The notes beneath the pieces were generated by a model. It was not told the DNA's origin. It did no database searches and saw only the letters and a list, made by a program, of their open reading frames with translations. From a virus (Duplodnaviria > Caudoviricetes), in IMG/VR virus record IMGVR_UViG_3300028591_000087, positions 1-64,000 of that record: a stretch of DNA of 64,000 nucleotides; one strand, given 5' to 3'. A program made the translations under genes and the position numbers. Positions 1 to 17,838 of the stretch are shown in pieces. Position 1 is the stretch's first letter, and every line of letters begins with the position of its first letter.

Positions 1-125
1 AGTCGGAGTCGGAGTCGGAGTCGGAGTCGGAGTCGGAGTCGGAGTCGGAGTCGGAGTCGGAGTAGGACTTGGGGTTGGAGTAGGTGATGGTGTTGGTGTC
101 GGAGTAGGACTTGGTGTAGGAGTTA
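1..125 (-). repeat. Coding hexamer repeat encoding a Thr-Pro tract
   Basis: (AGTCGG)n on + reads ACT CCG = TP in frame on -. Confidence 0.9.
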
Positions 126-2826
126 CAAATTGATTTTCAAATTGTACTGTTCCGCCATCATCCTTATAATACTTAGTTATACTACCATCAGAAATCAAGA
201 TATATCCATTCGGCACATCTACTTCTTCTACAGTATATTTACCAGCTTTTAGTCCAGTAATTGTTTCACTGCCTTTACCAGTTTGCGGATCAACAGGAAC
301 TTCTACATATAATGGTTCATTTAGTCCAACACCTGTAATTTTGAAATAGAAAATAGCAGGCTCCATATATTCAAACTGATCTACTACTTTTTCAATTGTA
401 ATACTACAATATACCACCGGAGTTGGCGATGGTGTAGGACTAATAGTCGGAGTTGCAGTAGGTGTTGGAGTAGGTGTTGTATCAGTTGGAGTAGGTGTTG
501 GTGTCGGAGTTGGAGTAGGTGTTTCTCCAGTCGGAGTTGGAGTAGGTGTAGGTGTTACTATAGGAGGCGGTGGCGTAGGAGTAGGTTTCTCTGGAGGATC
601 AATTTCATTAATAACTGTAATTATTCCAGATCCATCATCTTCTACTGCTTGTAATTTATAATTTGCAGTTGCAATTTCATCAATTTCAAGCAATCCTTCT
701 TCTACAACTGCTATTTCCACACTTTCACCCACACCAAGTGCATATGGTACACCATTGATGACAATAGTAAAACGTGGACGTTCTGGACCACTTAAAACAC
801 CAGTATGATGCCATACTTGCTTACCATTCTGACTTATCCAGAATAAACGTTTACCTGCCACTAATTCAATTTCACTAAATGGCATAGCATTCTCTGGTAT
901 AAATACTTCATTGATTAAACGAGCTGTCATTGCATCATTTGGATCTGTTGGATCGTATATGAGTTGACCCTCTGGAATAGATGCTAAATCTGCCGGCGCA
1001 CGATAAACTATACTTGGTAATGTACCACCAGTAGATCCACTTTTTAATTGATATAAACTATTTGCTTTACCATCAGCATCTACAAACAAAACCCAGTTAT
1101 TAGCATCGCCGCAATGGTTAGATCTATGACCTTCTTTACTGGTTTTATTTTCCCAGTTTGTAATATCAGCATACCATCTACCGCCGCCGGCAGTAAATGT
1201 AGTATTGTCCATTGTATCACAACGGACATGCCAAATTTCACCCTTCAACTGTTTTGTTACAATGATAGGAGTCGGTGTAGGAGTTGGACTTGGAGTTGGA
1301 GTAGGAGTGGGTGTAGGTGTTGCTGTGGGGGTAGGTGATGGAGTAGGAGTTACTGAATATTCAACCGCAGGTAATGGGAAATCTTGGATTTTAGTATCTT
1401 GCGGAGTATATAAAGTAGCAGTTGTATTCGTCAAAAGTGGAATACCGCCTTGTGATCCATTATAATCATATGAACCATATTCACCAGCAGCAGTTTGTGG
1501 ATTACTCAATCTGATACTATAATGTAATTCAACAGAATCGCATAATAGCAAATTAGTATTGATAATCCATTTGAAATAATCATTTTCTTCATTGCTATTA
1601 TATACTAATGTAAATAAATCACCAAAATAGAATGTGATATTATCATTAGTTGTGGCATTTATCCGCTGTCCATTCCAAATTACATACATTCTACTTGCAT
1701 CTGGAATGAAGTCCATATCATACTCATTACCCAAATTATCAATTCCAGAACCCATGTAGTCCATTACATAGCTTCCAGTAGTAACATATGATATTTCTTT
1801 ACCAATATTGCTTAATGAGAATGTTTTTCCGTTATTCAAATATTGCATAAATGATTGAGCATATTGGCTTGTTCTATAAGAGAAATCACCACTATCAACA
1901 TAAACTGCATAGCAGTTATAACCATGCTGTTGCGCAGTTGCATAAGAAAGCATTGCGTAATATAGTGCTTTATCGGAAGATACAGCATGGGTAGATAAAT
2001 TTCCTCTAATGTAACTGGTAGCACCATTATAATAGTTACGAGGGTCCCATCCCCACGTCTGTTCAAATAAATCTTGGTCACGATTGATAGCTTTTGCAAC
2101 TTCTACAAAATAATCGTACCAACTTGCCGGTGCGGCATAGGTGCCATATTTGAATAAATATGTATCTGGTCCAGCAACTATATTGCCATTGTACTCTTGG
2201 ACTACTACAGTTTCTCCTTCTGTTTTAGTCCCATTTAGACCAAGTTGATTATTTCTTTGATATACATGAGTATCGCCATCACTGAGTATAATCAAATATT
2301 TATTAGAAGCAGGCACTCCAGCATGATGGTCAAGCATATATGTACCTGTTAGAATACCTGAATTCAAATTCGTGCCACGATGTGTATATTTAGAAGGATG
2401 GTTCTTCTCTATTACAGTACCATCCAATTGCCGATAGATTTTAGATTTACCATAAAAATACACTATTCCGACATTGATGTCATCTCTGGCATCTGCTGCA
2501 GACATATATTGTTGTAGTAATCTATCTGCCGCATTATCAATAGATAAGGAGGCATCTACTACAAATACGATATCATATACATCAACACTAGTAGTAGGTA
2601 TTTTCAACATTATGTCTGATTCATAATTTTCATCCAAATTAGTAGCCGTTTTAGAAACGGCTACTTTGTTCAGATTCACAGATGAAATACCTGGTACGTA
2701 TACCTCGCCACTATCTATTGTTATTTCTGGAGTATATTCATTACTTTCTACAACTGTCTCAGCAATACCAGCAAATGGCATCATTGCAAGTGCTATTGCT
2801 AACAATATTGCTAAAAATCTTTTCAT
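1..2826 (-). CDS. Large secreted/surface protein: signal peptide, VWA domain, Pro-Thr repeat linkers, CnaB/SpaA-like domain (3' end outside window)
   Basis: ATG at 2826: MKRFLAILLAIALAMMPFAGIAE. MIDAS-like DIVFVVDASLS...GTNLNSG...LIILSDG. (TP)n tracts near 1-125, 420-590 and 1265-1350. ITGLKAGKYTVEEV motif. Runs off the window edge, which explains its absence from the ORF track. Confidence 0.75.
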   Translation of the reverse strand, partial: MKRFLAILLAIALAMMPFAGIAETVVESNEYTPEITIDSGEVYVPGISSVNLNKVAVSKTATNLDENYESDIMLKIPTTSVDVYDIVFVVDASLSIDNAADRLLQQYMSAADARDDINVGIVYFYGKSKIYRQLDGTVIEKNHPSKYTHRGTNLNSGILTGTYMLDHHAGVPASNKYLIILSDGDTHVYQRNNQLGLNGTKTEGETVVVQEYNGNIVAGPDTYLFKYGTYAAPASWYDYFVEVAKAINRDQDLFEQTWGWDPRNYYNGATSYIRGNLSTHAVSSDKALYYAMLSYATAQQHGYNCYAVYVDSGDFSYRTSQYAQSFMQYLNNGKTFSLSNIGKEISYVTTGSYVMDYMGSGIDNLGNEYDMDFIPDASRMYVIWNGQRINATTNDNITFYFGDLFTLVYNSNEENDYFKWIINTNLLLCDSVELHYSIRLSNPQTAAGEYGSYDYNGSQGGIPLLTNTTATLYTPQDTKIQDFPLPAVEYSVTPTPSPTPTATPTPTPTPTPSPTPTPTPIIVTKQLKGEIWHVRCDTMDNTTFTAGGGRWYADITNWENKTSKEGHRSNHCGDANNWVLFVDADGKANSLYQLKSGSTGGTLPSIVYRAPADLASIPEGQLIYDPTDPNDAMTARLINEVFIPENAMPFSEIELVAGKRLFWISQNGKQVWHHTGVLSGPERPRFTIVINGVPYALGVGESVEIAVVEEGLLEIDEIATANYKLQAVEDDGSGIITVINEIDPPEKPTPTPPPPIVTPTPTPTPTGETPTPTPTPTPTPTDTTPTPTPTATPTISPTPSPTPVVYCSITIEKVVDQFEYMEPAIFYFKITGVGLNEPLYVEVPVDPQTGKGSETITGLKAGKYTVEEVDVPNGYILISDGSITKYYKDDGGTVQFENQFVTPTPSPTPTPTPSPTPTPSPTPTPTPTPTPTPTPTPTPTPT

Positions 2827-2843
2827 AATATATTACCCCATAA

Positions 2844-3230
2844 TTAGTCGCTGATTGTTACGATAACTCTAAATGTCCAATCTACGTTGTCTGCATTGAG
2901 GTCAAAACTGTAAGTTTCTCCGCTGCCAACGGATTCCCAATCGCCGCCACCCTTTTTAGCCTGCCAGTTATAAGACACACTATAACTTGACAAGTCATAA
3001 TATTCTGGGTGTTCTGTAGAGATATTGGCAGTAAGAGTTATTGTGGTGCCAACAGCCAAAGTCTGATTGGCCTGTGCGCAACTGATTGATACTGCCCAGC
3101 CAGGATCTGGCAAAGAGATTGTAATATTTGGGTCATATTCTGGACTTGTCGCAGAACCTTCTGCTAAACCCATAGGCGCAAAAGTGAAACATAACATAAG
3201 TGCTGTGAGAAATGCGAAAAATCTTTTCAT
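2844..3230 (-). CDS. Small secreted protein, probable Ig-like fold
   Basis: Signal peptide; ITLTANI...YNWQ...YSF...FRVIVT pattern typical of Ig-like domains. Confidence 0.6.
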   Translation of the reverse strand: MKRFFAFLTALMLCFTFAPMGLAEGSATSPEYDPNITISLPDPGWAVSISCAQANQTLAVGTTITLTANISTEHPEYYDLSSYSVSYNWQAKKGGGDWESVGSGETYSFDLNADNVDWTFRVIVTISD

Positions 3231-3283
3231 AAGTGTAGATCTCCTTTCTAAAATTAAAATAGACTTTATCTACATAAAGTCTA

Positions 3284-3724
3284 TTATTTGTATAACTGAT
3301 ATTTTTTTGAGATTTTCCATGCGGTTTCGTCATCAAGAGGACGGAAACCTATGCAAGTAAGAGTGCGGCCAGTGCCATCATCATCGACCAGTTCTGGCTT
3401 CAGTTCAGTAAGACACGCATCCCATATGAGGAAAAAATCTTTACCTTCTTGTAGTCCAAGCTCTTCAGCTATTGTTTTGACTTTAAGTAGCTGTTTTAAG
3501 TTTTTAGCTTCGCAAACGGTTTTGGTAAATACACCATTGAACCAATCTTCATAGACATCTTTTTGGATTGTGAGTCCAATATAATAGTCATTACTCATAG
3601 CCATTTTTTGCGCGTTGCCGCGAATTGCGCGAGATATGAACGCGATAGATGCGTGCGCAACCTGAGCCGCAAGTTTACCTGGGCTCATATTAAGGTCTTT
3701 ACGAGCAATAATAATTTGTCTCAT
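3284..3724 (-). CDS. pth2: Peptidyl-tRNA hydrolase, PTH2 family
   Basis: RKDLNMSPGKLAAQVAHAS...DACLTE...TLTCIGFRP match PTH2 motifs. Confidence 0.88.
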   Translation of the reverse strand: MRQIIIARKDLNMSPGKLAAQVAHASIAFISRAIRGNAQKMAMSNDYYIGLTIQKDVYEDWFNGVFTKTVCEAKNLKQLLKVKTIAEELGLQEGKDFFLIWDACLTELKPELVDDDGTGRTLTCIGFRPLDDETAWKISKKYQLYK

Positions 3725-3728
3725 AAAA

Positions 3729-3789
3729 CAAGACCCCTTTCTTTTCCAAATTTACAGTTCGGTTTTAATAATTTTGCTGACAGGGTCTT
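3729..3789 (-). ncRNA. CAGCAA-stem RNA copy A, carrying an isolated Tyr-type anticodon stem-loop
   Basis: AGACCC-UGUCAGCAA...GGGUCU-UG closing stem; internal CCGAA-CUGUAAA-UUUGG hairpin. Confidence 0.6.
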
Positions 3790-3792
3790 AAT

Positions 3793-3866
3793 TGGCAGGC
3801 CTTGATGGAGTCGGACCATCACATACGGAGTCAAAGTCCGTTGCGCTACCGTTACGCTAAAGGCCT
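3793..3866 (-). tRNA. tRNA-Gln(UUG)
   Basis: Cloverleaf, loop CU-UUG-AC, CCA encoded. Confidence 0.9.
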
Positions 3867-3873
3867 ATATATC

Positions 3874-3948
3874 TGGCTGGCGATCCTGGACTCGAACCAG
3901 GAACCTCGGAGTCAGAGTCCGATACGTTGCCAATTACACCAATCGCCA
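3874..3948 (-). tRNA. tRNA-Gln(CUG)
   Basis: Cloverleaf, loop CU-CUG-AC, CCA encoded. Confidence 0.92.
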
Positions 3949-3955
3949 ATAAAAA

Positions 3956-4073
3956 CTCGACACGTAATTTCTTATGCTCTACCTACTGAGCTACATATGC
4001 TGTTAACATGGTGCATGTGGCGGGACTCGAACCCGTGATAGTAAGATTACTCTTAATTTGCTGCGCGTGTCGA
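3956..4073 (-). ncRNA. CAGCAA-stem RNA copy B with circularly permuted, anticodon-less tRNA body
   Basis: Order: T arm (GGGUUCGAGUCCCG), acceptor 3' strand plus ACCA, linker, acceptor 5' strand, D arm (UAGCUCAGUAGGUAGAGC); closed by a GACAC/GUGUC stem. Confidence 0.72.
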
Positions 4074-4095
4074 AAAATATTATGATAACCAACAC

Positions 4096-4172
4096 TGGTC
4101 CGGGTGGCGGGATTCGAACCCACGACCTCCTGATCCCAAATCAGGCGCGCTACCAAACTGCGCTACACCCGG
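4096..4172 (-). tRNA. tRNA-Pro(UGG)
   Basis: Cloverleaf, loop UU-UGG-GA. Confidence 0.93.
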
Positions 4173-4177
4173 ATAAA

Positions 4178-4224
4178 CAAGGCACGATTCTTTTTAATAT
4201 CCAATTCATAGCTGTCGGTGCCTT
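4178..4224 (-). ncRNA. CAGCAA-stem RNA copy C (minimal)
   Basis: AGGCAC-CGACAGCUA...GUGCCU-UG. Confidence 0.5.
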
Positions 4225-4274
4225 TTCTCATCTTTCATATATATTATATTATATTTTTTTAAGTTTTTCAAATA

Positions 4275-4472
4275 TCATGGTTTTCCATCTGGAAATACCG
4301 GATGCGGTTTATGTGGATTTCCATGACCTGGGTTGTGATCGCAACCACCACCGCCACCAACGCCAATACCCATGTCGCCATGGCCCATATGAGAGCCACC
4401 AGAAGCAGTTATATTTTCAGTATAATCAAATACTAACTTTTCTGCTTTGGGAGTAATATAATTCTTTTTCAT
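4275..4472 (-). CDS. Small leader-core type peptide, RiPP-precursor-like
   Basis: MKKNYITPKAEKLVFDYTENITASG followed by a Gly/His/Pro-rich tail with one Cys; RBS GAAGG upstream. Confidence 0.6.
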   Translation of the reverse strand: MKKNYITPKAEKLVFDYTENITASGGSHMGHGDMGIGVGGGGGCDHNPGHGNPHKPHPVFPDGKP

Positions 4473-4495
4473 GCTTTTTACCTTCTTTAAAAATA

Positions 4496-4588
4496 TGGCG
4501 GCCCGCCTGGGATTCGAACCCAGATTACCTCCTTCAGAGGGATATAACGGTTTTAGAGACCGGTGCACTACCATTATGCTAGCGGGCT
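4496..4588 (-). tRNA. Amber suppressor tRNA(CUA) with long variable arm
   Basis: Anticodon arm CCGGU-CU-CUA-AA-ACCGU; T arm CUGGGUUCGAAUCCCAG; G73-CCA end. Confidence 0.88.
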
Positions 4589-4614
4589 ATACAGTGAATC
4601 TCTTCACTGTTTAT

Positions 4615-4643
4615 ATTATATCATTTTTTTTAATTATTGTCAA
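4615..4643 (-). promoter_or_regulatory. Sigma-A type promoter upstream of the suppressor tRNA
   Basis: TTGACA-17 nt-TATAAT on - strand. Confidence 0.75.
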
Positions 4644-4950
4644 AATTGTCCATAGTCATAATGCCATTATTACGCATATAATCTAAAACCATCTTTCGTC
4701 CAAAAACATTTAAACAACTCTAGTCATTTGGTAAACCTGACATTAATAATGAATATGGTTTTTCTCTTTCAATAAAGCCATCAGAACTCCAAATGGTATT
4801 TTCTTCTTCAATAACCATATCACGAGCCATACGAGCACGCATAACTCTAACTTGACGAACATTATTATTAATAAGATCTTCAATCATTAGATCTTCATTG
4901 ACGTTTGTATGCCCTAGTGGAAACATCAGGGCAGCGTTCTCCCATGCCAT
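4630..4950 (-). CDS. Hypothetical protein at end of radical SAM operon (1 TAG read-through)
   Basis: ATG at 4950 (MAWENAALMFP); TAG at 4720 reads through to TAA at 4630. Confidence 0.55.
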
Positions 4951-6379
4951 CTTCCTGTCTATCCTTTCTATGTTTTTGCATATTATATAATTCAGTTGCA
5001 TACATATTTTCAACAAAATCTAAAAATTGTTTAACTAATGGATATTCTAACTCATATTCTGTAATTGTGTGTAAATATGCAATAACACCCATATCAGTAT
5101 ATTTTTGAATTAAAAATTTTAATTTAGCTTTAAACATTTTACAAACACTTTCAATAGGAAAGAATGGATCATTTAAAGCTTCTTTTTGAGCGCCAAAACA
5201 TCCTTGTAAGCAATATTGATTAGCCCAACAAGTATCACATCCATAATTAGCATTACGAACATTACTCATTAAAACTTTAATGGCCATTTGTGGGTTAAAA
5301 GCTTCTATATCAATGATTTTATCATTTTCAACAACAAATTTGCCATATAATAATTTATTATAAGCTGTACGATGGCAAGGACAAATCGCTAAATCTCCTA
5401 AACGTACAGTTAAATCTGTTGCGACTGTACACCCCATGAACGTATCTGCTTGTGCAAAAGCATAATTTATATATCCAGAAATACTATTATCATTATCATT
5501 CATACCTTCTCGAATATTGAATAAATGATTAGCAAATTTTCTAATATCATTATTACAATAATTCAATAGATAATAATCAATTTCATAATTTAAATATTCC
5601 AAATATGCTTGAATGGCTTCATCTGTCCAATCATCATTACGAACTTCTAGCATCATTAAAGCAGATAAATCAAAACCATATTCATCTAACTGTTGAATCC
5701 ACCATTGAAAATTTTCAATCCAATATGGCGCACTCGCTGCAGAAACCATCGGATGAAAACAAAAATTATTATGTTTAGCAAATGAAAATATTTTATCCCA
5801 ATCTTCATCAGTTCTAACATATCCATTATTTAATGGCCGTGTTTTTTCTTCTAAAATTTTGCCATCTACTGATACACTAAATGTCAAATTATGACCAGTT
5901 TGTTTAAAAGCATCAATATAATGTTGAATTCTTGCACATGCTTTATTATTTCTTACGAAAGAACAATTAGATGCAATCATGAACCAATCAGCTTGTAAAC
6001 CTTTATTTAAATATTCGAGTGTAATTTCTAATACATCCCAACCAAATTGACTATGCCAAATTTCTCCAGTAAAAAATTCAATTTTAGGAATATGATAATT
6101 ATTTTCTAAAATATAATCATATAAAAGTCTTAAATTATGTAAAATAAGTTCTGGATCTTGAAATTCTTTTGGATATAATTCTTCATATTTTACCAAATAG
6201 CAATATGAACAATTTTGGTTACATGCTGCAGTAATATAAATTTCTAAATTCGCATCATTGCGTAATGAATATTGATTCATATCAGTTTCTTTCCATGGAT
6301 TAAAAAACCGTAAATCTAATACAGTTTTTAATAACTGATTTTGTTCTTGTTGATAAGTTATACGTTCTTCGTTTAACAT
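4895..6379 (-). CDS. Radical SAM/SPASM domain enzyme
   Basis: CNQNCSYC motif, FFTGE, SVDG; SPASM cysteines GC...ICPCH...CDTCWANQYCLQGC...C. Confidence 0.9.
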   Translation of the reverse strand: MLNEERITYQQEQNQLLKTVLDLRFFNPWKETDMNQYSLRNDANLEIYITAACNQNCSYCYLVKYEELYPKEFQDPELILHNLRLLYDYILENNYHIPKIEFFTGEIWHSQFGWDVLEITLEYLNKGLQADWFMIASNCSFVRNNKACARIQHYIDAFKQTGHNLTFSVSVDGKILEEKTRPLNNGYVRTDEDWDKIFSFAKHNNFCFHPMVSAASAPYWIENFQWWIQQLDEYGFDLSALMMLEVRNDDWTDEAIQAYLEYLNYEIDYYLLNYCNNDIRKFANHLFNIREGMNDNDNSISGYINYAFAQADTFMGCTVATDLTVRLGDLAICPCHRTAYNKLLYGKFVVENDKIIDIEAFNPQMAIKVLMSNVRNANYGCDTCWANQYCLQGCFGAQKEALNDPFFPIESVCKMFKAKLKFLIQKYTDMGVIAYLHTITEYELEYPLVKQFLDFVENMYATELYNMQKHRKDRQEDGMGERCPDVSTRAYKRQ

Positions 6380-7776
6380 AAGCAATCTCCTTGATAAATG
6401 AATTTATTAAAAGCATGTAATTCAGCATCATTTTGTATATATTGCATAGCACCATTTAATAATAATTTAAATTCTCCTAATGGTACTAATCCATATGATC
6501 CAGTAATATTATAATTGTCTTTAATACAATACGCGGTATGAGACTAAATAAATATTGCTGCTTTTAAAGCATTTTCTTCATCAATATATATCTAATCTAC
6601 TTGTCCAGCTAAAGCAAGAGCAATTATTGCCGCAGTATGAGTTGCCAAACGTGCAGAAGCATTGTTTGTATTATATAATTCCATAATATAATAATGGTTA
6701 TGTTCATACTGATCATCATTAACACACATTGATCTTGTCGCAGAACTAGCAAATTTATCAAAATTAATTGTACCTTTGTCTGCTCTTGTAGTATCATCTG
6801 CAGCTAATTTAGAATATTCTTCTGCAATTTGGACAAAACCTTCATGACAAGTAGAAACCATATTATTAGGTAGAAAACCAATACTTACATTGCCAGTCCC
6901 ACAAGTATGATATCCATATTTATATGTTAAATTATCTTGTATGATATCACCATTAAATGGAGTAATACATTCATAATAATCAAAAATATGTTCTCCATCT
7001 CTCTGTCTTTCTTCAATATGACGACATTTTTTGACAAGTCCTGCAAAAAATTTACCATCTTCAACAGTGACAGGAGAAGGGACTGCGGTATTGGGGATAC
7101 CATATATTATAAATACATTCGGAAGATTTAGTTTTTTAATTTTATCAATAAATGTATTTTCATAAAATTTATAATATGCAATAATATCATCTTCCGTTTG
7201 TAATGTTTTCATTGTATTTAAATCTAATGTGCCTTTTAAAGTAACAGTTAAATTAATATTCGCGGGTAAACGATTTTGTTTTAATAAATCAATTAATTTA
7301 TCAAAATTATTAATACATTTTTCTGTTGTACCATTTCCTCGACCAGCATCATTTAAATTTAATGGCCCATCTACAGATAATTGCAAACAATAGCTAAAAT
7401 CACGATCAGGATATTCGCCAAATATATCCATTAATCCAAAAAATTGATCACACCATTGAGGATAAGAAAAATTAGTAGATGAATAACCGTTTTTTAAATA
7501 TGGATAATATTCAATTAATTTACGTAATGTATAATGTAATCGGTCCATATGAATAAATGGTTCGCCACCCCAGGTTTCAAAATTGGTTAACATATATTTC
7601 TTAGGGAAATATTCGCGCACACGATTAAAGTAATAATCACCTTTAAATGATTCTTCTAATGCGTCATCAATTTCTTTTAAAATAGGGTTTTTATATATAT
7701 TACAATAACGGCACTATAAATTACAAGTACCACAGGTGTAAAAAATTGCTGTGTTAAAATTCTTATTATAAACCAT
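6373..7776 (-). CDS. Radical SAM enzyme, 467 aa (3 TAG read-throughs)
   Basis: ATG at 7776 with GGAGG RBS; CNL(TAG)CRYC motif, WGGEP, LSVDG; TAA at 6373 overlaps the next start. Confidence 0.85.
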
Positions 7777-7796
7777 ATAATAAATATCCTCCCAAA

Positions 7797-9476
7797 TTAA
7801 TTTGTTTTAGGATAATGAGCATTTGTGATATCAATTGTGGTTGTATTACTATGATATTGATGTTGATTTGCTTCATTAGATTTTAAACCATTTGTTTTAG
7901 CAACATTCATACAACCATTACTATTATCACCATTAGCCATAGTTCCATTGTTGTTAGTTCCATTACCTCTAGTACCATTCGTATTTGCTCCATTAGCCAT
8001 ACCATAATTTGGATTAGAACCACGACCATTAGCACCATTACCATTTGTCCCATAAGACATTGTTCCATTACTTTTTCTTCCATGACTACAAGTTCTACCA
8101 TTATCCTAATGAAATTGTTGACCACAACTATAACCATTGGCATTTAAACTATTAGCATTTACTCCATTTCCACGTGTACCATTGCTTTTTGCCCCATTAG
8201 ATTTATTACCCTCACTATTCTGTCCATTAACATTTGCTTCATTTGTTTTTAACATATAAGTATTGGTTCCATGACTACAAGTACCATTACTTCTAGAACC
8301 TGCAGTATTTATACCATGAGCATTTGGTTCATTACTATTTCCACCATTCCCTTTAGTGCCATTACTGTTGGCACCGTTGCTCCATTTAGTATTCCAATTG
8401 TTACCATTTACATGCTGTCCATTGGTCCAGGTACCGTTAGATCTATTTCCATTGCTATGAGAGCCATTGCCATTTGCGCCGTTGCCTCTATTACCATTGG
8501 AATTTGCGCCATTGCTCCAACCGCCGTTACTTCTGGTACCATTACCACGATTACCATTACTCCAACCGCCATTGCTCCAACGTCCATTGGATCTTGAACT
8601 ATTCCATTTATTACCATTACTGTTAGAACCATTGCTGTTAGAGCCATTACTGTGGGAGCCGTTGCCATTAGCACCATTACCACGATTACCATTACTATTA
8701 GCGCCATTAGACCAACCACCATTAGATCTTGTTCCATTACTATTAGCAGCATTACTGTTATAACCATTGCCCTTATTGCCATTCCAACAAGTGCCATTCC
8801 ATTTATCAGCATTACTTTTATTACCATTACTATTAGCACCATTGCCATAAGTAACATGCCATCTTAAAGTATTATAACAAGTACCATTACTATTAGACTA
8901 ATATGAATTTCTTCCTTGCCCACAAGTACCATGCTAATTCTATCCATTACCTTTGTTGCCATTAGATTTATATCCATTAGTATTAACGATATTACTATTT
9001 AAAGCATTATTATCTGCACCATTAGATTTTTGTCCATAGCTTTTTCCAGTATTTGCACCACCAACATAACATTTTCCATCCCAATAAGAACCATGACTAT
9101 TATTTTGATTGTTTTTATTTGTATTAGCTCTAACGCCTTTATTATTAGTAGCCTCGTTTTTACATTTTACTCTTGGTGCATTGGTAACTACTGTTCTAAT
9201 CTATGTTGTCTAATCAACACGAATATAGTCACCAACTCTGACAGCCGTCATTACAGGCCACCAGCTTTGCTATGTACCTAAAAATTTATCTGATCTAAAC
9301 TAATCAATTTTAGTTTTTAAATTATTTATATGTGAAGCATCAGCACGATCTCCAGCATTTGGTCCATTGCCTAAACTAGCTAAACCATTAGAATATCTGG
9401 AGGACAAATCATTAAAAGTTCTGTACCAGCTTCTAATATCAGATGATAAAATCTATTCGCCTACAGCAACTGCCAA
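7797..9476 (-). CDS. 559-aa Asn/Gly pentapeptide-repeat protein (NGxxS)n, 9 in-frame TAG
   Basis: GAGGTG RBS and TTG at 9476; single frame to TAA at 7797 when TAG is sense; NGANS NGNKS NGTRS NGGWS NGNRG... Confidence 0.82.
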
Positions 9477-9678
9477 TTTACTTCACCTCTTTATATTATA
9501 ATATCAAAAAATTTAGACTTCGTCAATCTATATATAATACAACTTTTAATAGGTAAATTATCATATATTACCCAATTTCGGGAAAAGCAGGGATCGATAT
9601 AAATGATCCCTGCCGCAATTAAAAATTCTACTTTCAAGTTTTGTCTCCCGCGTGTCGACCCTCTGCGGGCGGACCAGA

Positions 9679-10266
9679 TTACATATTCGGATTATCTGAA
9701 TAAACCGCCCAACAATAGCATCGCCAATGAAATGGTGGCAACTCATACTCATCAATCCCAACTTTAAAAATTCCATAATGCGATCTACAAATTCCTGTAT
9801 CCTTATCACAATCTGGTTCACCAGTAATTTTAACATATTCGAACAAACCTGTGCGCTCATTTAATGTATCAAATACAGTATTTCTTAAACGTCGTGATTC
9901 TAACTCAATAATATGATTAATAGAATTGATTAGATTAGCTTTATTTCTATATTTATTATAAGCTGCATAATGCCCAAAAATAGAACTATTTAAAGTCCAT
10001 CCATCTTTATGATAAATTAATTTATCTAATTCTGGGAAATTAGATAAATCTTTATCAGTAAAATTATATTCAGATTTAAACCATTCTTTAATAGCATCTA
10101 ATATATCTTCTAAAGTTTTTCGCACAAAAGACTCAGATGATCCAGCATCAGGAGATTTTGAATTTAAAATATATTCAGTATGATCTTTTTCTCCCTACTC
10201 AATTATTGGATCAGTAATATCTTTTAATCTATCAAATTCACGTGAATCTATTCTTGTACGTTTCAT
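9679..10266 (-). CDS. Protein with MuF/SPP1 gp7-like C-terminal motif (1 TAG)
   Basis: GGAGG RBS, ATG at 10266; C..C...G...LPPFHWRCYC resembles the PPxHPNCRC motif. Confidence 0.5.
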
Positions 10267-10323
10267 ATAAACCTCCAGAAATAAAAAAAATACCAGATCC
10301 AATTAGTTTATGGATCTGGGATA

Positions 10324-10398
10324 TGGTGCCTGCGGGTGGGATCGGACCACCGACCTATGGGGTATGAGTCCATTGCTCTACCACTGAGCTACACAGGC
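10324..10398 (-). tRNA. tRNA(CAU), Met or Ile2
   Basis: Loop CU-CAU-AC, CCA end. Confidence 0.85.
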
Positions 10399-10403
10399 AA
10401 AAA

Positions 10404-10517
10404 CAAGACGGACTATAAACGCGTGTTGCCATTACACCATTTCCCCATGTGGGGAAAGCTGGATTCGAACCAACAGTACGTGCTCCCTATGCAAAAGAAC
10501 TATTGCTGACCCGTCTT
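10404..10517 (-). ncRNA. CAGCAA-stem RNA copy D with permuted tRNA body
   Basis: AGACGG-GUCAGCAA, T arm GUUGGUUCGAAUCCAGC, UUUCCCC/GGGGAAA closed acceptor hairpin, D arm UGGUGUAAUGGCAACAC, CCGUCU-UG. Confidence 0.72.
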
Positions 10518-10522
10518 TGAAA

Positions 10523-10596
10523 TGGAGCGGCTAACGGGATTCGAACCCGTGAACCAACCTTGGCAAGGTCGTATGTTACCACTACATCATAGCCGC
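10523..10596 (-). tRNA. tRNA-Gly(GCC)
   Basis: Loop UU-GCC-AA. Confidence 0.92.
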
Positions 10597-10597
10597 A

Positions 10598-10672
10598 TGG
10601 GAGGTATGACAGGAGTCGAACCTGCATTCGTAGAGCCACAATCTACTGTCCTACCGTTGGACGACACACCAC
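10598..10672 (-). tRNA. tRNA-His(GUG)
   Basis: Loop UU-GUG-GC; G-1 and C73. Confidence 0.88.
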
Positions 10673-10676
10673 ATAT

Positions 10677-10778
10677 CTAGGCAGTTTCTCAATTGTTGGG
10701 AATCGAACCCAAAATGTCAGCTTTGCATGCTAATGTCTTACCTTTAGACTACAATAAAGATTTTGCTGTAACTGCCTT
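10677..10778 (-). ncRNA. CAGCAA-stem RNA copy E with D, anticodon (GCA) and T arms but no free acceptor end
   Basis: AGGCAG-UUACAGCAA...UAGUCUAAAGGUAAGAC, UUAGC-AUGCAAA-GCUGA, UUGGGUUCGAUUCCCAA...CUGCCU-AG. Confidence 0.68.
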
Positions 10779-10783
10779 ATAAG

Positions 10784-10855
10784 TACCGGCACAGGGAATC
10801 GAACCCTGGTTACCGGTTTAGAAGACCGGTGCTCTATCCGCTGAGCTATGCCGGC
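10784..10855 (-). tRNA. tRNA-Arg(UCU)
   Basis: Loop CU-UCU-AA. Confidence 0.9.
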
Positions 10856-11302
10856 TTATGCATTAATCAATCTCGGAATCACTGGCAAATATTTCTCCTG
10901 AAGTTTCTTTGTGAGAGTGCCTTTCCGCATAATATGATCTTTCATATCAGCCTGCTTAACCATAATCGCATAAAGGTTTTTAGACCTTACAATTGTGTCA
11001 ATATACTCACCATATGAATCCTCATGTTTATGAGTAAGAAGATCAACTGCGATATAGAACTTACGCCGTGTATCTTCATCCTCAATGCAGTTCTGAAGTT
11101 CACTCCAGCTGCATTTTGTATCCTCGATTACATCATGAGCAATAGCAACAGCCCGAACCATGTTCTGCTCTTCTATTGGCATCAAAACAAATCGAGGATC
11201 ATCTTCAACATATTTTGTCACCATCATTGCGTGTTCTAATTTCTTGGCGGAATAATGCTTTCGCGCACATTCGAACACGCGAGACATATCTGCTGAATTC
11301 AT
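10856..11302 (-). CDS. HD-domain hydrolase, small alarmone hydrolase/Mesh1-like
   Basis: H...AHDVIEDT...LLTH...VKQADMKD pattern of RelA/SpoT-type HD domains. Confidence 0.72.
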   Translation of the reverse strand: MNSADMSRVFECARKHYSAKKLEHAMMVTKYVEDDPRFVLMPIEEQNMVRAVAIAHDVIEDTKCSWSELQNCIEDEDTRRKFYIAVDLLTHKHEDSYGEYIDTIVRSKNLYAIMVKQADMKDHIMRKGTLTKKLQEKYLPVIPRLINA

Positions 11303-11308
11303 AATAAT

Positions 11309-11387
11309 CAAGACTCCTTTTAATAGCTACTTTTGATTAATCACTCAAATGCTGTTATTACCTTACGGTATTTGCTGTGTGAGTCTT
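11309..11387 (-). ncRNA. CAGCAA-stem RNA copy F
   Basis: AGACUC-ACACAGCAA...GAGUCU-UG. Confidence 0.6.
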
Positions 11388-11472
11388 TGGTGCGGGATGA
11401 GGGACTCGAACCCTCACACCATAAGGCACATGATCCTTAGTCATGCCTGTCTACCAGTTCCAGCAATCCCGC
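11388..11472 (-). tRNA. tRNA-Leu(AAG)
   Basis: Loop CU-AAG-GA, long variable arm. Confidence 0.9.
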
Positions 11473-11551
11473 ATAAGGTGGGGTCGTTAGACCCCTATGA
11501 AATTACCTACGGGCTCCTGCATAATGCAGTCAGTGCTCTTGCGTAGGCGAG

Positions 11552-11623
11552 TACCCACCCAGGGAATCGAACCCTGATCGATCGGTTCGTAGCCGATTAC
11601 TCTTTCCGTTAAGCTAGGCGGGC
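11552..11623 (-). tRNA. tRNA-Arg(ACG)
   Basis: Loop CU-ACG-AA. Confidence 0.88.
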
Positions 11624-11626
11624 ATA

Positions 11627-11715
11627 TGGTGACGGGTTGCCTACGGGATTTTGCGCTGGCTTTTACTCTCATGACCGTTCCGGCCGCACACGAATCTTTG
11701 AGCTTCCCGCCCGTC
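11627..11715 (-). ncRNA. ACCA-ended RNA with acceptor-like stem and non-tRNA body
   Basis: GACGGG...CCCGUC-ACCA; no T-loop consensus. Confidence 0.45.
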
Positions 11716-11791
11716 TGGTACCTGACATGGGATTCGAACCCACACTTGACTGGTTCTAAGCCAGTTGCCTCTTCCGTTGGGCTAATCAGGC
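11716..11791 (-). tRNA. tRNA(UAG anticodon, Leu) with short variable loop
   Basis: Loop CU-UAG-AA, 76 nt. Confidence 0.85.
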
Positions 11792-11880
11792 ATAAAAGGG
11801 GTAGTGAGCGATATATAGGGATTAGGAGGAATCCATCATGAAAGGAGGTATGTCGGAAACGGGTTGCTCACTACCCGAAG

Positions 11881-11960
11881 TGCCCAAGGTGGGATTCGAA
11901 CCCACACCCTTTCGGATCCGATTTTGAGTCGGACGCGTCTGCCAATTCCACCACAAGGGC
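11881..11960 (-). tRNA. tRNA-Leu(CAA)
   Basis: Loop CU-CAA-AA. Confidence 0.9.
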
Positions 11961-11964
11961 AAGT

Positions 11965-12051
11965 TGGTGCCCACGGCCGGACTCGAACCGGCACGTCCTT
12001 TCGGACAGCGGATTTTAAGTCCGCTACGTCTACCAATTCCATCACGTGGGC
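11965..12051 (-). tRNA. tRNA-Leu(UAA)
   Basis: Loop CU-UAA-AA. Confidence 0.92.
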
Positions 12052-12107
12052 ATTTCTTTATCTTACAAATATATTATATAATATATTTTTAAGATTTTCA
12101 AATCAAC

Positions 12108-12195
12108 TGGCGGACGCGGTAGGATTCGAACCTACGGGGCTTGAAGGCCCAACGGTTTTCTAGACCGCCGCCATAGTCCACTCGGCCACACGTCC
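12108..12195 (-). tRNA. tRNA-Ser(AGA)
   Basis: Loop CU-AGA-AA, long variable arm, G73. Confidence 0.88.
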
Positions 12196-12269
12196 ATAAA
12201 GCGGATTCCATTATCCTTATATGGTTTGCCGGAATCTAATACCGGAGTACACTATTGAAATCCGCTAAG

Positions 12270-12356
12270 CGCGCTCGGAAGGATTCGAACCTTCGGGCCC
12301 CAGATGGGACCAACGCCTTAGCAGGGCGCCGCTTTCGACCACTCAGCCACGAGCGC
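12270..12356 (-). tRNA. tRNA-Ser(GCU)
   Basis: Loop CU-GCU-AA, long variable arm. Confidence 0.9.
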
Positions 12357-12361
12357 AAGAA

Positions 12362-12449
12362 CTAGACACGCTTATCTTCCTGGAGCCGACCCAGTGCCTT
12401 CTTACAAATCCAAACTTCGTATCTTTAAAGAAAAATTGCTGACGTGTCT
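12362..12449 (-). ncRNA. CAGCAA-stem RNA copy G
   Basis: AGACAC-GUCAGCAA...GUGUCU-AG; internal T-arm-like CUGG-GUCGGCU-CCAG. Confidence 0.58.
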
Positions 12450-12453
12450 CGGC

Positions 12454-12527
12454 TGGAGCCTTCTATTGGAATCGAACCAATGTTCATGCTTTACGAAAGC
12501 ATTGTCCTACCATTGAACGAAGAAGGC
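12454..12527 (-). tRNA. tRNA-Thr(CGU)
   Basis: Loop UU-CGU-AA. Confidence 0.88.
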
Positions 12528-12557
12528 AAGAGGCGGTTAGCTGGACCGCCTGATGAA

Positions 12558-12875
12558 TTAAAATCCCCAAAAAGTCTTGAAGAAGTTGCGGAACGGATCA
12601 TTCAATCCAAGAATTACATCCGCGTCCTTGAGAGAAGTATGGAAGGTTCCATAGTCTTTACAGAAGGCTTGCAATTTTTCATTTGCAACTTTCTGTGCAT
12701 CAAGAGCATCCTTGATTGCAGTTTCAACTTCCTTAGCACGCTCTTCACGCTTAGCCTTTTTCTCTGCTTCAGCAGCTTTACGAGCCTTGCGCACACTCAA
12801 CGCCTTTTCTTCTGCGGCATTAAGTTCATCAACCGTGTCATATGCCTTGTTGGTTACTTCAGATAAATACTTCAT
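12558..12875 (-). CDS. Hypothetical coiled-coil protein
   Basis: AAGGAG RBS, Ala/Lys/Glu-rich, hairpin terminator downstream. Confidence 0.75.
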   Translation of the reverse strand: MKYLSEVTNKAYDTVDELNAAEEKALSVRKARKAAEAEKKAKREERAKEVETAIKDALDAQKVANEKLQAFCKDYGTFHTSLKDADVILGLNDPFRNFFKTFWGF

Positions 12876-12935
12876 AATTTCCTAATCTCCTTTATGAACA
12901 TTTTATCTTATACCGGTATAAAATTGCCTTTCGGC

Positions 12936-13009
12936 TGGAGCGCCATAACAGATTTGAACTGTCACCTGCTGCTTGGAGGGCAGTGATGCTGCCATTACAC
13001 CAATGGCGC
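12936..13009 (-). tRNA. tRNA-Gly(UCC)
   Basis: Anticodon UCC, U73-CCA. Confidence 0.88.
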
Positions 13010-13228
13010 ATAGAGGGGAACTTCCCCTCAGATCTACGGCAAGCGTGCTGGGATCTATTCTTTTGGAAGTCCCAGCGGGTTGCGCTGCGTAGGGGTGGAC
13101 CCGGGCCTTTCAGCCAGCCCAAACGGCGGTTTTTAGTCACGCTGGACAGCCTTGCGGCAGATCGTGCACTTTATACACAATCCACTACTTTTGCCGGTTG
13201 GTTACGGTAATCGCAAGTAGTCAGCGAT

Positions 13229-13305
13229 TGGTCGGGATGAGTGGATTCGAACCACTGATCTTCGCCTTATCAGAGCGCTGCACTAACCAACTGTGCTACA
13301 TCCCG
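13229..13305 (-). tRNA. tRNA-Ile(GAU)
   Basis: Loop CU-GAU-AA. Confidence 0.9.
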
Positions 13306-13521
13306 GAAGCTTCCCCTGTGTCCAAGTACAACGGTACGCACCACAGGGAGCACGGCTACAATTCACACTATTATTCGCACTCACGCGCAATAGACTTGCT
13401 TATCTCAAGTAGTAGTGTGTAATCCAGATCGCCTATCATTTCAGCTTATCTGGTTGATAAGTAGTATCTAATGGACGCCACCCTTGTGGAGAGCTGTAGC
13501 CAACTTCCTTTGTCGAGTGGG

Positions 13522-13737
13522 TTATTTAATGACGCATTTAAACTCGGCAGGATTCTCACCATATACGCGATATACTGTTACATCGCCGCCAGCACTCGTA
13601 ACAAACTCACTATATGTGCCGCCATACCGATCAATCCCTCTGTCTTCGACGATCCGATCAGTAGGGGTGTGATCAAATAGGAAATCTTTGTGTTTCTGAT
13701 GGAGTTCAGCGATTGTCATTTTCATTCGTCCTTTCAT
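13522..13737 (-). CDS. Hypothetical protein
   Basis: ORF with plausible RBS inside the tRNA array; exact start uncertain. Confidence 0.55.
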   Translation of the reverse strand: MKGRMKMTIAELHQKHKDFLFDHTPTDRIVEDRGIDRYGGTYSEFVTSAGGDVTVYRVYGENPAEFKCVIK

Positions 13738-13741
13738 CTTT

Positions 13742-13818
13742 TGGTGCCAGAGAGTGGAGTTGAACCACTGTATAGTAGATTTTCAGTCTACTGCCTTAAC
13801 CAACTTGGCGACTCTGGC
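13742..13818 (-). tRNA. tRNA-Phe(GAA)
   Basis: Loop CU-GAA-AA. Confidence 0.9.
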
Positions 13819-13821
13819 ATA

Positions 13822-13907
13822 TGGTGCGCCGGGGTGGAGTCGAACCACCGATGTTTCTTTGTAACGGATTTACAGTCCGCTGCCTTCGCCACTGGACACA
13901 CCGACGC
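13822..13907 (-). tRNA. tRNA-Tyr(GUA)
   Basis: Loop CU-GUA-AA. Confidence 0.9.
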
Positions 13908-13914
13908 ATATAAA

Positions 13915-13990
13915 TGGCGACCCTGGTGGGAATTGAACCCACGTTCTTCGGCGTGACAAGCCGACGCGTTAACCACTGCACCACAGGGCC
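13915..13990 (-). tRNA. tRNA-Asp(GUC)
   Basis: Loop UU-GUC-AC. Confidence 0.9.
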
Positions 13991-14142
13991 ATAAAACAAG
14001 GTGCTTGTACTAAACTATGTTGGTATGCACCTACCCTCATCCCAGCGTTCGTCGCTCACGAGACGATCCGTTAGCTTCACGGATCCGCCGGACCTCAACC
14101 GGCACGTCATATCCTGTCAATTCAGGCTTTATGGGATTGAAG

Positions 14143-14215
14143 CGGCCCCTGAAGGACTCGAACCTTCGACACGCTGGTTAACAGCCAGCTGCTCTGCCAA
14201 CTGAGCTAAGGGGCC
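14143..14215 (-). tRNA. tRNA-Asn(GUU)
   Basis: Loop CU-GUU-AA. Confidence 0.9.
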
Positions 14216-14350
14216 AAAATGCGGTTTACTTTGCTTCTTTGTATACCGTTTTCCACTAAGCCACATATCCCCGAAGGGCCGGTGGTAGTTGAACCGCAAA
14301 ATCCATGTTAACGGTTACTCATTTAGTTTCGTTGCCCGATGAGTACAGGC

Positions 14351-14425
14351 TGGTACCCTGTCCGGGGGTTGAACCCGGCCCTACAGCTTGAAGGGCTGTC
14401 GACTTAACCGATTGTCTAACAGGGC
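14351..14425 (-). tRNA. tRNA-Glu(UUC)
   Basis: Loop CC-UUC-AA. Confidence 0.87.
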
Positions 14426-14884
14426 ATAAGATGGAGAATTTTCAGATAGCTTATTCAGCATTTCTAAATATCTCCAAAAGTGACCTACTCCGAACTTCAT
14501 ATCGGTATGCCGCATATGGAGTCGAACCATCTTATCCAGTGGATCGCCACCGGCCGGGAACTCCACTTCCCGCCTACGGGGTTCGGTTACTAATCACCGC
14601 CTATTGCGAACTTGCGGGCGGCCTTCGCGACACCTTTAATTTCAGGTCTAAAACATACTTGCCTTACGGCGCAGGTCTGTATCTGCGCAGATCAGCACCG
14701 CCGATCGGTCGGCGCTGGCGTGAGTATCTTGATCAGAGCAGGACTTCTTATGAGCGCTCCCTTTTCTTGCTTCTGTTCAGTGGACTTGAACCACTCTCAT
14801 AAGTGTCTTTTCCTCACGACGATCCGTTATGACCTTGGACAAAGGTAGCGGTTTCTTTAACGTCGACGCCGCCAAGCTGACTCG

Positions 14885-14956
14885 TGGCGGGAGTGGGACT
14901 CGAACCCACGACTCTCAGCTTATGAGGCTGATCTGCTACCACTGCAACATCCCGCG
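14885..14956 (-). tRNA. tRNA-Met(CAU), initiator-like 5' end
   Basis: CGCGGGA start with 1:72 mismatch; loop CU-CAU-AA; lacks the 3 G-C anticodon-stem pairs of typical initiators. Confidence 0.8.
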
Positions 14957-15292
14957 ATATGAAAGAAAGTTTTCCCTCGAAAGGAGGATAACTTACAACC
15001 CTTGCGCGCAATAAGCCTTTTATTAGTCCTTAGGTTGACCCTTCTGTCAAACCATCCGACTGCTCATGCCAAGGAGCCACGGAGCTGTGAGACTTTCTTT
15101 TTGGTATTCACGCAACCTGGTGAGGATCACAGCGAGCAATCTCCAACACGTTCATATCATTTATATCCCGCATCAACGAAATCCTAGCGGTCCTCTTCGT
15201 TTGATCGCACTACAAGCGCAAGCACTTGCATCACCCACGTGAGAGATTAGTTTGGTGCAATAACGCAGTCTCCTACATCATTGTCCAAAAGT

Positions 15293-15368
15293 TGGTGACG
15301 ACACGAGGATTCGAACCTACGATTTACTGCTTGAGAGGCAGTCGGCCTGACCTTTAGCCGATGTCGCC
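15293..15368 (-). tRNA. tRNA-Glu(CUC)
   Basis: Loop CU-CUC-AA. Confidence 0.85.
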
Positions 15369-15574
15369 ATATGGGGCTTACGCCCCGAATCGGTTTAAAC
15401 TATTTTTTATACTCATCACCGTAGTTTGAGTTGAGTCGATATCATGTCTCGTGCCCTCTGCACTCCACGGGGCAGGGTTTTCTTTGAAGGGTTTTCCTTC
15501 CCTTACCTTACATATATATAATATCAAATTTTTTTAAATTTTTCAAGTGACTTTCATAATGGTTGGATTTGAGA

Positions 15575-15844
15575 TCAATCAAACTCAGCAATGAACTCAT
15601 CGCCCCAGCTGATGTTTGCAACCTTCATGATGCACCTAAAGCACTCTTCAATTTCCATATCATAATCATTGGTGAGATCCCACTCATCATCTGGAATGAA
15701 ATCCCGCATCAGATTGCCATCGCAATCAAAGCGTTCATCATACAGATTATATATGTCGCTCGGATCCACATTAAGTTTCTTGGCAACCTTTTCTGCAATC
15801 TTCCAGATCTTTACCACAGGCAGCGTTCTTACAATATCAGCCAT
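15575..15844 (-). CDS. Hypothetical acidic protein
   Basis: Own promoter and GGAGG RBS. Confidence 0.65.
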   Translation of the reverse strand: MADIVRTLPVVKIWKIAEKVAKKLNVDPSDIYNLYDERFDCDGNLMRDFIPDDEWDLTNDYDMEIEECFRCIMKVANISWGDEFIAEFD

Positions 15845-15900
15845 TTCTTTTTCCCTCCCTCAACCTTACATATATATAATATCATAATTTTTTATATTTT

Positions 15901-17501: not shown

Positions 17502-17626
17502 TACATTACTCCTCTTGACTAAATAAAGCCCTGCGCGGGTCCAGTATTGCTCGGCATTTCAGGCTTGCCCCGGACCTATTGTGAAATTTGCTGGGAGAAT
17601 TTCTATACCATTACCGCACGCGCGAA

Positions 17627-17697: not shown

Positions 17698-17757
17698 ATA
17701 AGGGAACCCAAGATGGTGCAGGCACCTTCCTGGGCGGGCATAAGCCCTAATACAAAG

Positions 17758-17831: not shown

Positions 17832-17838
17832 ATATGAG

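Follow-up and report, generated by a model that had tools for sequence, protein, structure and literature searches.

A gene cassette in a rumen phage pairs a 559-amino-acid repeat protein with two radical S-adenosylmethionine (rSAM) enzymes, and is best read as a phage-encoded maturation system that acts on a whole protein, in the manner of the systems making RiPPs (peptides synthesized by ribosomes and then modified after translation). The cassette occupies positions 4630-9476 (-) of a 64,000-nucleotide stretch of DNA (the window) that forms the first 64 kb of the 193,102-bp IMG/VR virus record IMGVR_UViG_3300028591_000087. When TAG is read as a sense codon, the repeat protein (P0001), which we take to be the substrate, is followed by an rSAM enzyme (rSAM-1, P0002), a second rSAM enzyme with a SPASM domain (rSAM-2, P0003) and a small conserved open reading frame (ORF). 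We infer that rSAM-1 and rSAM-2 probably modify the tail of the adjacent protein repeatedly. The evidence comes from conserved gene order, conserved iron-sulfur ligands in both enzymes, purifying selection and a large family of substrates with a shared N-terminal domain and hypervariable tails.

Gene order is conserved across relatives

A search with rSAM-2 recovered 655 homologues at E <= 1e-5. Neighbourhoods of relatives were collected from ENA/Logan, IMG/VR and GTDB genomes and scored with profiles built from the cassette, and synteny was counted over the 49 distinct rSAM-2 genes for which 3.6 kb or more of upstream sequence was available. This sample spans viral contigs, metagenome-assembled genomes (MAGs) and the prophage of one cultured isolate, with enzyme identities of 28-80%. 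rSAM-1 lay directly upstream of rSAM-2 in 48 of the 49 loci, and a protein with the N-terminal domain (N-domain) of P0001 and a low-complexity tail lay upstream of rSAM-1 in 44. The reverse test, starting from the N-domain, found rSAM-1 immediately downstream in four of four cases and rSAM-2 in all three for which the contig allowed it. A repeat protein with the same N-terminal domain had been expected upstream of the rSAM homologues from the sequence alone, and the association holds in both directions; with such a neighbour at 44 of 49 loci, the enzymes do not routinely occur without one.

The conserved set among relatives comprises the N-domain protein, the two rSAM enzymes, the small ORF, glycosyltransferases GT2 and GT8, and YcaO. 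A recognizable small ORF was present in 20, GT2 in 12 and YcaO in 7 of the 49 loci, and inspection by eye revealed no correlation between the presence of YcaO and how Cys-rich the tail is. Some relatives are true multi-cassette genomes that carry two or three rSAM-pair cassettes (L025 at 5749-8389 and 12205-15259; contigs L019/L025 and L020/L026).

The record itself also holds a second copy of the locus. Its positions 172,958-193,102 are colinear with 44-19,611 and have diverged from them (65-95% nucleotide identity). This copy contains a 257-amino-acid N-domain protein with an NGxC-rich tail, both rSAM enzymes, the small ORF, a suppressor tRNA and YcaO; the substrates share 35% identity and the rSAM enzymes 47% and 48%, and the small ORFs are alike by profile match only. 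The YcaO (P0009) is bona fide (PF02624, 137.6 versus 25.7 bits) and is encoded directly upstream of the Cys-rich substrate. The last 100 nucleotides of the contig are identical to 19512-19611, giving a lariat, and a contig from the source run fuses non-matching sequence to position 19506. Judged from these junctions, the assembler most likely joined two variant phages that occur together into a single lariat record.

Two rSAM enzymes with invariant cysteines

rSAM-1 (6373-7776 (-), 467 residues, three TAG codons) starts 20 nucleotides past the stop codon of P0001. One of its TAGs, at codon 21, falls within the cluster motif C18-N-L-#-C22-R-Y-C25 (CNL#CRYC, with # for TAG). rSAM-2 (4895-6385 (-), 496 residues, no TAG) overlaps rSAM-1 by about 7-13 nucleotides and carries a CX2CX5CX3C motif. 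Translation with TAG as sense therefore agrees with what had been noted from the sequence alone, namely an rSAM gene within 20 nucleotides of the repeat gene that has a TAG inside its CxxxCxxC motif, and an overlapping rSAM/SPASM gene, for which a full SPASM set of cysteines was found.

Cysteine invariance was scored over 50 distinct rSAM-1 and 53 distinct rSAM-2 homologues. The CxxxCxxC motif of the radical SAM superfamily (PF04055) is invariant in both enzymes (Cys18/22/25 and Cys55/59/62); their PF04055 scores, 16.7 and 19.6 bits, are below the gathering cut-off of 29.5. Seven further cysteines are invariant in rSAM-2 (Cys319, 337, 383, 386, 392, 396 and 415), including those of CX2CX5CX3C, which is the pattern of the SPASM subfamily (TIGR04085; score 15.8 versus a cut-off of 27 bits). 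rSAM-2 matches phrog_1802 at 7e-20, and its best matches are maturases that form thioethers in peptides or proteins: PapB (1.9e-11), QhpD (3.9e-9) and, from the structure solved for CteB, its SPASM domain (2.2e-7). rSAM-1 has three further invariant C-terminal cysteines (Cys292, 310 and 417) and a weak N_Twi_rSAM match (31 versus 170 bits); this set would fit a single auxiliary cluster of the twitch type. Its best curated matches, all far below cut-offs, are the twitch-domain family, DynA, anSME and YhhB (NF041707, a marginal 19.9 versus 445 bits, generic core only), and its only match to a solved structure is the triceptide synthase ChlB, at E 2.3e-4 and over the generic SAM-binding core only. 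By hhalign the two rSAM families are distantly paralogous (probability 96.5%, 18% identity), with an alignment that extends no further than the first Cys pair.

A 98%-identical variant of the cassette from bovine gut provides a measure of selection. Of the 28 substitutions listed for rSAM-1, rSAM-2 and the small ORF, 26 fall on third codon positions, so all three genes are under purifying selection. The small ORF (4630-4950 (-)) had been predicted from the sequence and is indeed conserved and real, but its start was placed too early: homologues put it 46 codons later, at Met47 of the longer ORF (position 4950), leaving a protein of 106 residues. A homologue was modelled as a three-stranded sheet with two to three helices (predicted local distance difference test score (pLDDT) 76). 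The protein has no Pfam match, no PDB sequence match and no Foldseek match at E <= 0.001, and the best VIA-align Z was 2.9. A joint fold of rSAM-2 with the small protein and the N-domain, from the TAG-free relative L012, scored 0.00, which is neutral as to binding.

The two enzymes might instead act on phage DNA, tRNA or a small metabolite, with the repeat protein being a structural or surface protein that evolves fast, is unrelated to them and travels along. The location of the cassette, inside a tRNA array and near a PTH2 hydrolase and a suppressor tRNA, would suit such targets, as would the weakness of the homology to peptide maturases; phage rSAM enzymes are known from DNA hypermodification (PMC8989533), and the glycosyltransferases of relatives might just as well belong to DNA or sugar chemistry. 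However, the three-gene order is kept in very different surroundings across the 28-80% identity range, with frames that overlap or nearly abut, and a seven-Cys SPASM domain with a YcaO partner is typical of peptide or protein modification. The composition of the tail (Cys, aromatics, Asn and period 5) is, moreover, a trait of the whole family, as described below, and we consider a different target unlikely.

A family of putative substrates with hypervariable tails

P0001 consists of a folded N-domain, a long repetitive tail and a short conserved end. The N-domain was delimited by alignment and a structure model to residues 1-108 (9153-9476 (-)). A word-based homologue search with residues 1-118 returned no match; an exhaustive search with an N-domain profile against 1.8 billion protein representatives then gave a family of 541 clusters, with the match always at the N-terminus. 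The domain is modelled as a three-helix bundle (H11-27, H47-62 and H87-102; mean pLDDT 76.5), for which there was no fold match in the PDB and, among predicted viral structures, none beyond weak matches to uncharacterized viral proteins; a sequence search of the PDB was likewise without a match. Across 22 diverse N-domain sequences the sole invariant residue is Cys105, which lies just past the third helix, where the tail joins the domain, and in a wider sample 130 of 150 members have a Cys near the end of the domain. P0001 matched no Pfam or NCBIfam family. Searches of GenBank phages yielded no DNA match and no N-domain match; the only matches were to rSAM genes of Campylobacter CP220-like phages, at 20% identity.

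The hypervariable Asn/Gly/Ser tail that follows (7845-9152 (-)) has a five-residue period. Asn makes up 26% of residues 126-545, Gly 20% and Ser 12%, and Asn-Asn and Gly-Gly spacings in the tail peak at 5, 10 and 15 (z of about 9-10 versus shuffles). Of its 55 NG dipeptides, 39 stand exactly five residues after the previous one. The pentad register is N/H/Y, then G, then T/N/A/S, then a variable residue, then S/G, which puts W/H/Y two residues ahead of Asn (WSN, HSN, HVN and WTN), and the repeat DNA has periods of 15, 30 and 135 nucleotides, the last being a higher-order repeat. The layout given by the sequence-only reading, an N-terminal domain (about 108 residues here) followed by an Asn/Gly tail of period 5 (about 430 residues), stands, but its count of roughly 80 units was generous, as about 61 clear pentads fit. 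That the repeat is Cys-poor was also correct: its tail has 1.8% Cys versus a family median of 5.1%, in the lowest quartile. The same holds for its departure from the pentapeptide-repeat consensus (PF00805, A(D/N)LXX), because P0001 has no Pfam match at E <= 0.1 and pentad position 3 is T/N/A/S rather than a central Leu/Phe. The protein ends in TTTIDITN (residues 545-552; 7821-7844 (-)), the window's version of a T-x-I-D-I-x-N end that is conserved in many family members.

Across the family, tail lengths run from about 35 residues up to about 580, with a composition of 15% Asn, 15% Ser, 12.5% Gly, 11% Thr, 6% Cys, 5% Tyr and 4% His. At 434 residues, the tail of P0001 is longer than any other in the analysed set of 86 representatives, yet that of relative L004 reaches about 580. 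A Gly spacing of 5 is found family-wide (z 18.8), and other periods, including nine, also occur; the tails of L029 and L046 are almost devoid of Cys. A hypervariable tail of period 5, usually rich in Cys, characterizes the family as a whole. Array length is polymorphic even between close strains: the 98%-identical bovine-gut variant has 210 additional nucleotides in the array (window 8519-8665), which amount to exactly 14 pentads in frame, indicating that the tail changes by gain and loss of units with the frame kept.

A leader-like N-domain followed by repeated, core-like units could also describe a multi-core RiPP precursor, with the modified tail cut into small antibacterial or signalling peptides that are released at lysis. 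The arrays are indeed hypervariable, as in conflict systems, and the weak CefA match of one relative shows that a class of period-5 peptide precursors exists. Yet no protease or exporter gene was recognized in the conserved cassette, the units are non-identical and have no recognizable cleavage motifs between them, and the conserved C-terminal cap suggests that the whole chain matters, all of which makes release as peptides quite unlikely. It is very unlikely that the repeat protein is a helper of the enzymes, such as a scaffold or a carrier of metal or sulfur that uses the invariant Cys and a His/Asn-rich tail, rather than their substrate. Cys105 as the sole invariant residue, tails rich in metal-friendly residues and the suspicion that the role of CrpA (discussed below) likewise involves metals would agree with such a function; helpers, however, are usually conserved, and this tail can have anything from 35 to about 580 residues and differs in its type of repeat even among close relatives.

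TAG recoding and expression of the cassette

Under the standard translation table 11, positions 7797-9476 give fragments only. With TAG read as sense, P0001 is one ORF of 559 codons (9476..7797 (-)) containing nine in-frame TAGs, as the sequence-only reading had proposed; these stand at codons 8, 59, 69, 89, 92, 179, 181, 193 and 457. Its TTG start lines up with the initiating Met of homologues (MAVAVGE versus MAVSTGS and MAITAGN) and is preceded by the ribosome-binding site AGAGGTGA. Further upstream lies a promoter-like site (TTGACG-17-TATTAT, TG-extended; 9498-9526 (-)), which is a match to consensus only. The 200-nucleotide spacer 5' of P0001 also holds a GC-rich, structured-looking segment (9580-9700 (-)).

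An amber suppressor tRNA gene with anticodon CUA (4496-4588 (-)) lies directly downstream of the cassette, and a perfect match to the consensus promoter (TTGACA-17-TATAAT, TG-extended) precedes it at 4643-4615. An insertion of about 20 nucleotides enlarges the variable arm of this tRNA, for a total length of 93; its counterpart in relative L001 (9268-9356 (-)) has 89. In alignments of the cassette proteins, columns that hold TAG pair with Gln at 4.2 times background and with Ser at 0.88 times, and the CNL#CRYC motif of rSAM-1 reads CNLQCRYC in relative L002. The acceptor end of the suppressor tRNA resembles that of the phage's own tRNA-Gln (weak 1:72 pair, G73). On these alignments and this Gln-like acceptor end, we accept that TAG encodes Gln in this phage. 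Ser, suspected from the long variable arm, was ruled out by the same column frequencies and acceptor end.

Although repetitive DNA opens long frames on both strands and a code chosen to open a frame is no proof in itself, the idea that the 559-residue ORF is an artefact of low-complexity DNA under a wrongly assumed code is effectively refuted by an N-domain with homologues in 541 clusters (including standard-code phages with no TAG in the gene), by TAG columns that align with Gln in a phage encoding a suppressor tRNA, by a start codon and ribosome-binding site that agree with homologues, and by the in-frame length change of the array in the bovine variant.

TAG codons are unevenly distributed over the genome, with 60 of 114 genes having none. 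P0001 ranks 12th of the 114 in density, at 1.61 per 100 codons, close to the portal gene at 1.65. Within the cassette, TAG counts for substrate, rSAM-1 and rSAM-2 are 9, 3 and 0 in the window, 5, 0 and 0 in L004 and 7, 0 and 0 in L017; L006 and L062 depart from this pattern of a TAG-rich substrate and a TAG-free rSAM-2. A TAG-rich substrate gene beside a SPASM enzyme gene with no TAG suggests that synthesis of the substrate probably comes late, after the suppressor tRNA has become active. The suppressor tRNA and promoter beside the cassette would be compatible with, without proving, synthesis of the SPASM enzyme before its substrate. Contigs from metatranscriptome libraries of a different sample match 5192-8683, covering rSAM-2, rSAM-1 and the 3' part of P0001, with zero differences; this is weak support for transcription, as such libraries can hold DNA carry-over.

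A proposed maturation system for a whole protein

In the maturation system that we propose, the folded three-helix N-domain would serve as a handle for docking, anchoring or both, followed by the junction Cys, the fast-evolving Asn/Gly tail and the short conserved C-terminal motif. rSAM-1, with what may be a single auxiliary iron-sulfur cluster, and rSAM-2, with its seven-Cys SPASM domain, would abstract hydrogen atoms from tail residues and install repeated covalent changes. Cross-links would be the most likely change, with epimerization as the alternative: Cys-to-carbon thioethers could form at NG(T/S)C units, and aromatic-to-C-beta links at W/H/Y-x-N units. The small downstream protein may be an accessory, and relatives may add YcaO for backbone activation and GT2 or GT8 for glycosylation. 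The product would most likely remain a protein, possibly associated with the virion, instead of being cut into peptides.

Several observations weigh against this reading or limit it. The profile hidden Markov models of characterized maturases all score rSAM-1 and rSAM-2 far below their cut-offs, and homology therefore does not reveal the chemistry. Both enzymes lack the space for a fused RiPP recognition element ahead of the cluster motif, and the model of the small protein, a candidate for such an element, has no fold match. YcaO, found in some relatives, is missing from the cassette of the window, and the window's genome gave no GT2 match, a result that is uninformative in that a control search for a T4-type capsid likewise found none. 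Because the second copy may be a co-assembled variant and not a paralogue, it counts as one more relative only. The cassette of the window sits in a tRNA array rather than in a structural module, and no PHROG or Pfam family connects P0001 with virions. Finally, a tail with 1.8% Cys, and those of L029 and L046 with almost none, mean that thioether formation cannot be the universal reaction.

Thioethers are nonetheless plausible for the Cys-rich relatives and for the few NG(T/S)C units of the window. Cys-poor tails, such as those of the window, L029 and L046, need another reaction, for which an aromatic-to-C-beta cross-link and epimerization are candidates. We tentatively suggest that the rSAM pair staples the Asn/Gly pentad chain into a structural polymer held by cross-links, for instance a fibre of the virion or an appendage of its coat, with at least one of the enzymes catalysing, on Asn, Ser or aromatic residues, a Cys-independent reaction as yet undescribed for proteins; in that case, the hypervariable tail would form a surface that is tunable and resists proteases. 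A role in the virion is suggested only indirectly, by the late-type TAG density, by hypervariability and by the tail lysin beside the cassette of L017, where a tail lysozyme/M23 gene lies upstream. For the solenoid or fibre and the virion anchor envisaged in the sequence-only reading, the hints are equally indirect, namely the portal-like TAG density and this tail lysin. The context of a tail-fibre module was verified for L017 only, as the genes upstream of the cassettes in L021 and L014 had no PHROG or Pfam match.

Comparison with known systems

The closest experimental precedent, by analogy, is the CrpA/CrpC system of Methanococcus voltae, in which the rSAM/SPASM enzyme CrpC installs thioethers on the 28.8-kDa repeat protein CrpA and the N-terminal domain of CrpA aids binding (PMC13692751, 2026). 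In both systems, an rSAM enzyme with seven SPASM cysteines acts, or in the phage would act, on a whole protein made of an N-terminal domain and a C-terminal repeat array, and the phage N-domain is a candidate docking handle like that of CrpA. The differences are several. Crp uses one enzyme with a fused recognition element, and the phage two enzymes without any; CrpA has 17-residue Cys-rich repeats (C-x-x-Q/D), unlike the five-residue Asn/Gly units with 1.8% Cys; the CrpC family, TIGR04463, is not among the NCBIfam matches of either phage enzyme; and one system belongs to an archaeon, the other to a phage.

Maturases of ranthipeptides and sactipeptides (PapB/freyrasin, CteB/SCIFF and QhpD) are the best, though weak, matches of rSAM-2, and the NGxC-type repeats of relatives and of the second copy would suit Cys-to-carbon thioethers. 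Scores fall far short of membership in these families (43.8 versus 340 bits for PapB, NF047865; 17.9 versus 425 bits for CteB/SCIFF, TIGR03974). Their substrates are short peptides, whereas the phage has a Cys-poor substrate of 559 residues and an obligatory second, twitch-like rSAM enzyme. Triceptide synthases (such as XyeB, YhhB and ChlB; PMC11499958) are rSAM enzymes that form three-residue cyclophanes; the W/H/Y-x-N pentads fit the aromatic-x-x motif of triceptides, and rSAM-1 weakly matches ChlB, YhhB and DynA, but triceptide precursors are short peptides handled by one enzyme.

The CXXX-repeat system (TIGR04114/TIGR04115, PF27846) and the 'Cys-every-fifth' RiPP peptide CefA (NF038108), both classes defined in databases only, also comprise rSAM-linked targets with short-period repeats, with a period of five in CefA too. 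P0001-P0004 and ten relatives had no NCBIfam match to the CXXX-repeat models at E <= 0.1-1, and CefA gave a single match, at E = 0.08, in one relative. PF27846 was without a match in the Pfam scan, from whose model set it was possibly absent; in a nearby Atlas cluster (score 0.84, a lead only), of which half is viral, 19% of members carry it. Unlike the phage cassette, the definitions of these systems include neither a three-helix N-domain nor an rSAM pair.

Proteusins such as polytheonamide (PoyA/PoyD) combine a large leader-like N-terminal region, an Asn/Gly-rich core and an rSAM enzyme that acts many times per chain. It was from this resemblance that the sequence-only reading had argued that the enzymes modify the repeat. 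A RiPP-like system acting on the repeat protein stands as the best reading, given synteny in both directions, but the link to proteusins does not: P0001 matches no Pfam or NCBIfam family, including the leader families (NHLP/Nif11), the Nif11-type rSAM model scores 20.3 versus 518.7 bits, the period differs, and the phage cassette has no methyltransferase or dehydratase genes.

Maturation by rSAM/SPASM enzymes is textbook chemistry for short peptides, and such maturation of a whole protein has been shown just once so far, for CrpA/CrpC in 2026. We found no description in the literature of a phage rSAM/SPASM/YcaO/RiPP repeat-protein system of this kind. The phage gene family described here is large, with 541 clusters on the substrate side and 655 homologues on the enzyme side, and pairs two rSAM enzymes with a protein-sized substrate, often with YcaO and glycosyltransferase accessories. 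If the proposed reading is correct, these would make up an additional class of post-translationally cross-linked phage proteins, with two uncharacterized rSAM families and a natural library of hundreds of repeat substrates, and would offer an example of amber recoding that orders the synthesis of enzyme and substrate in time.

Hosts and genomic context

The samples that yielded the phage are from the gut of sheep and cattle, and relatives were binned in MAGs of Lachnospiraceae, Oscillospiraceae and other Clostridia. Experimental access is favoured by relatives that use code 11 and by one cassette in a prophage of a cultured Clostridiales strain. This cassette (L065, the same as L046; 3891-7302) is part of a contig of 428 kb from Clostridiales Family XIII bacterium PM5-7, and its substrate tail is Cys-free and of an F/Y/W/N/S type.

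The window carries 35 tRNA genes, one transfer-messenger RNA (tmRNA) gene and one tRNA with anticodon CUA. The tmRNA gene is full-length (19504-19836 (-); Rfam 102.5 bits) and ends the 35-gene tRNA array. A PTH2-type peptidyl-tRNA hydrolase (3284-3724 (-); Pfam 75.9 bits) is encoded beside tRNA genes and is also present in the second copy. Outside the window, downstream of the portal gene (genome 68,818-87,435 (+)), lie two giant ORFs of 3763 and 2409 amino acids with 70 and 27 in-frame TAGs.

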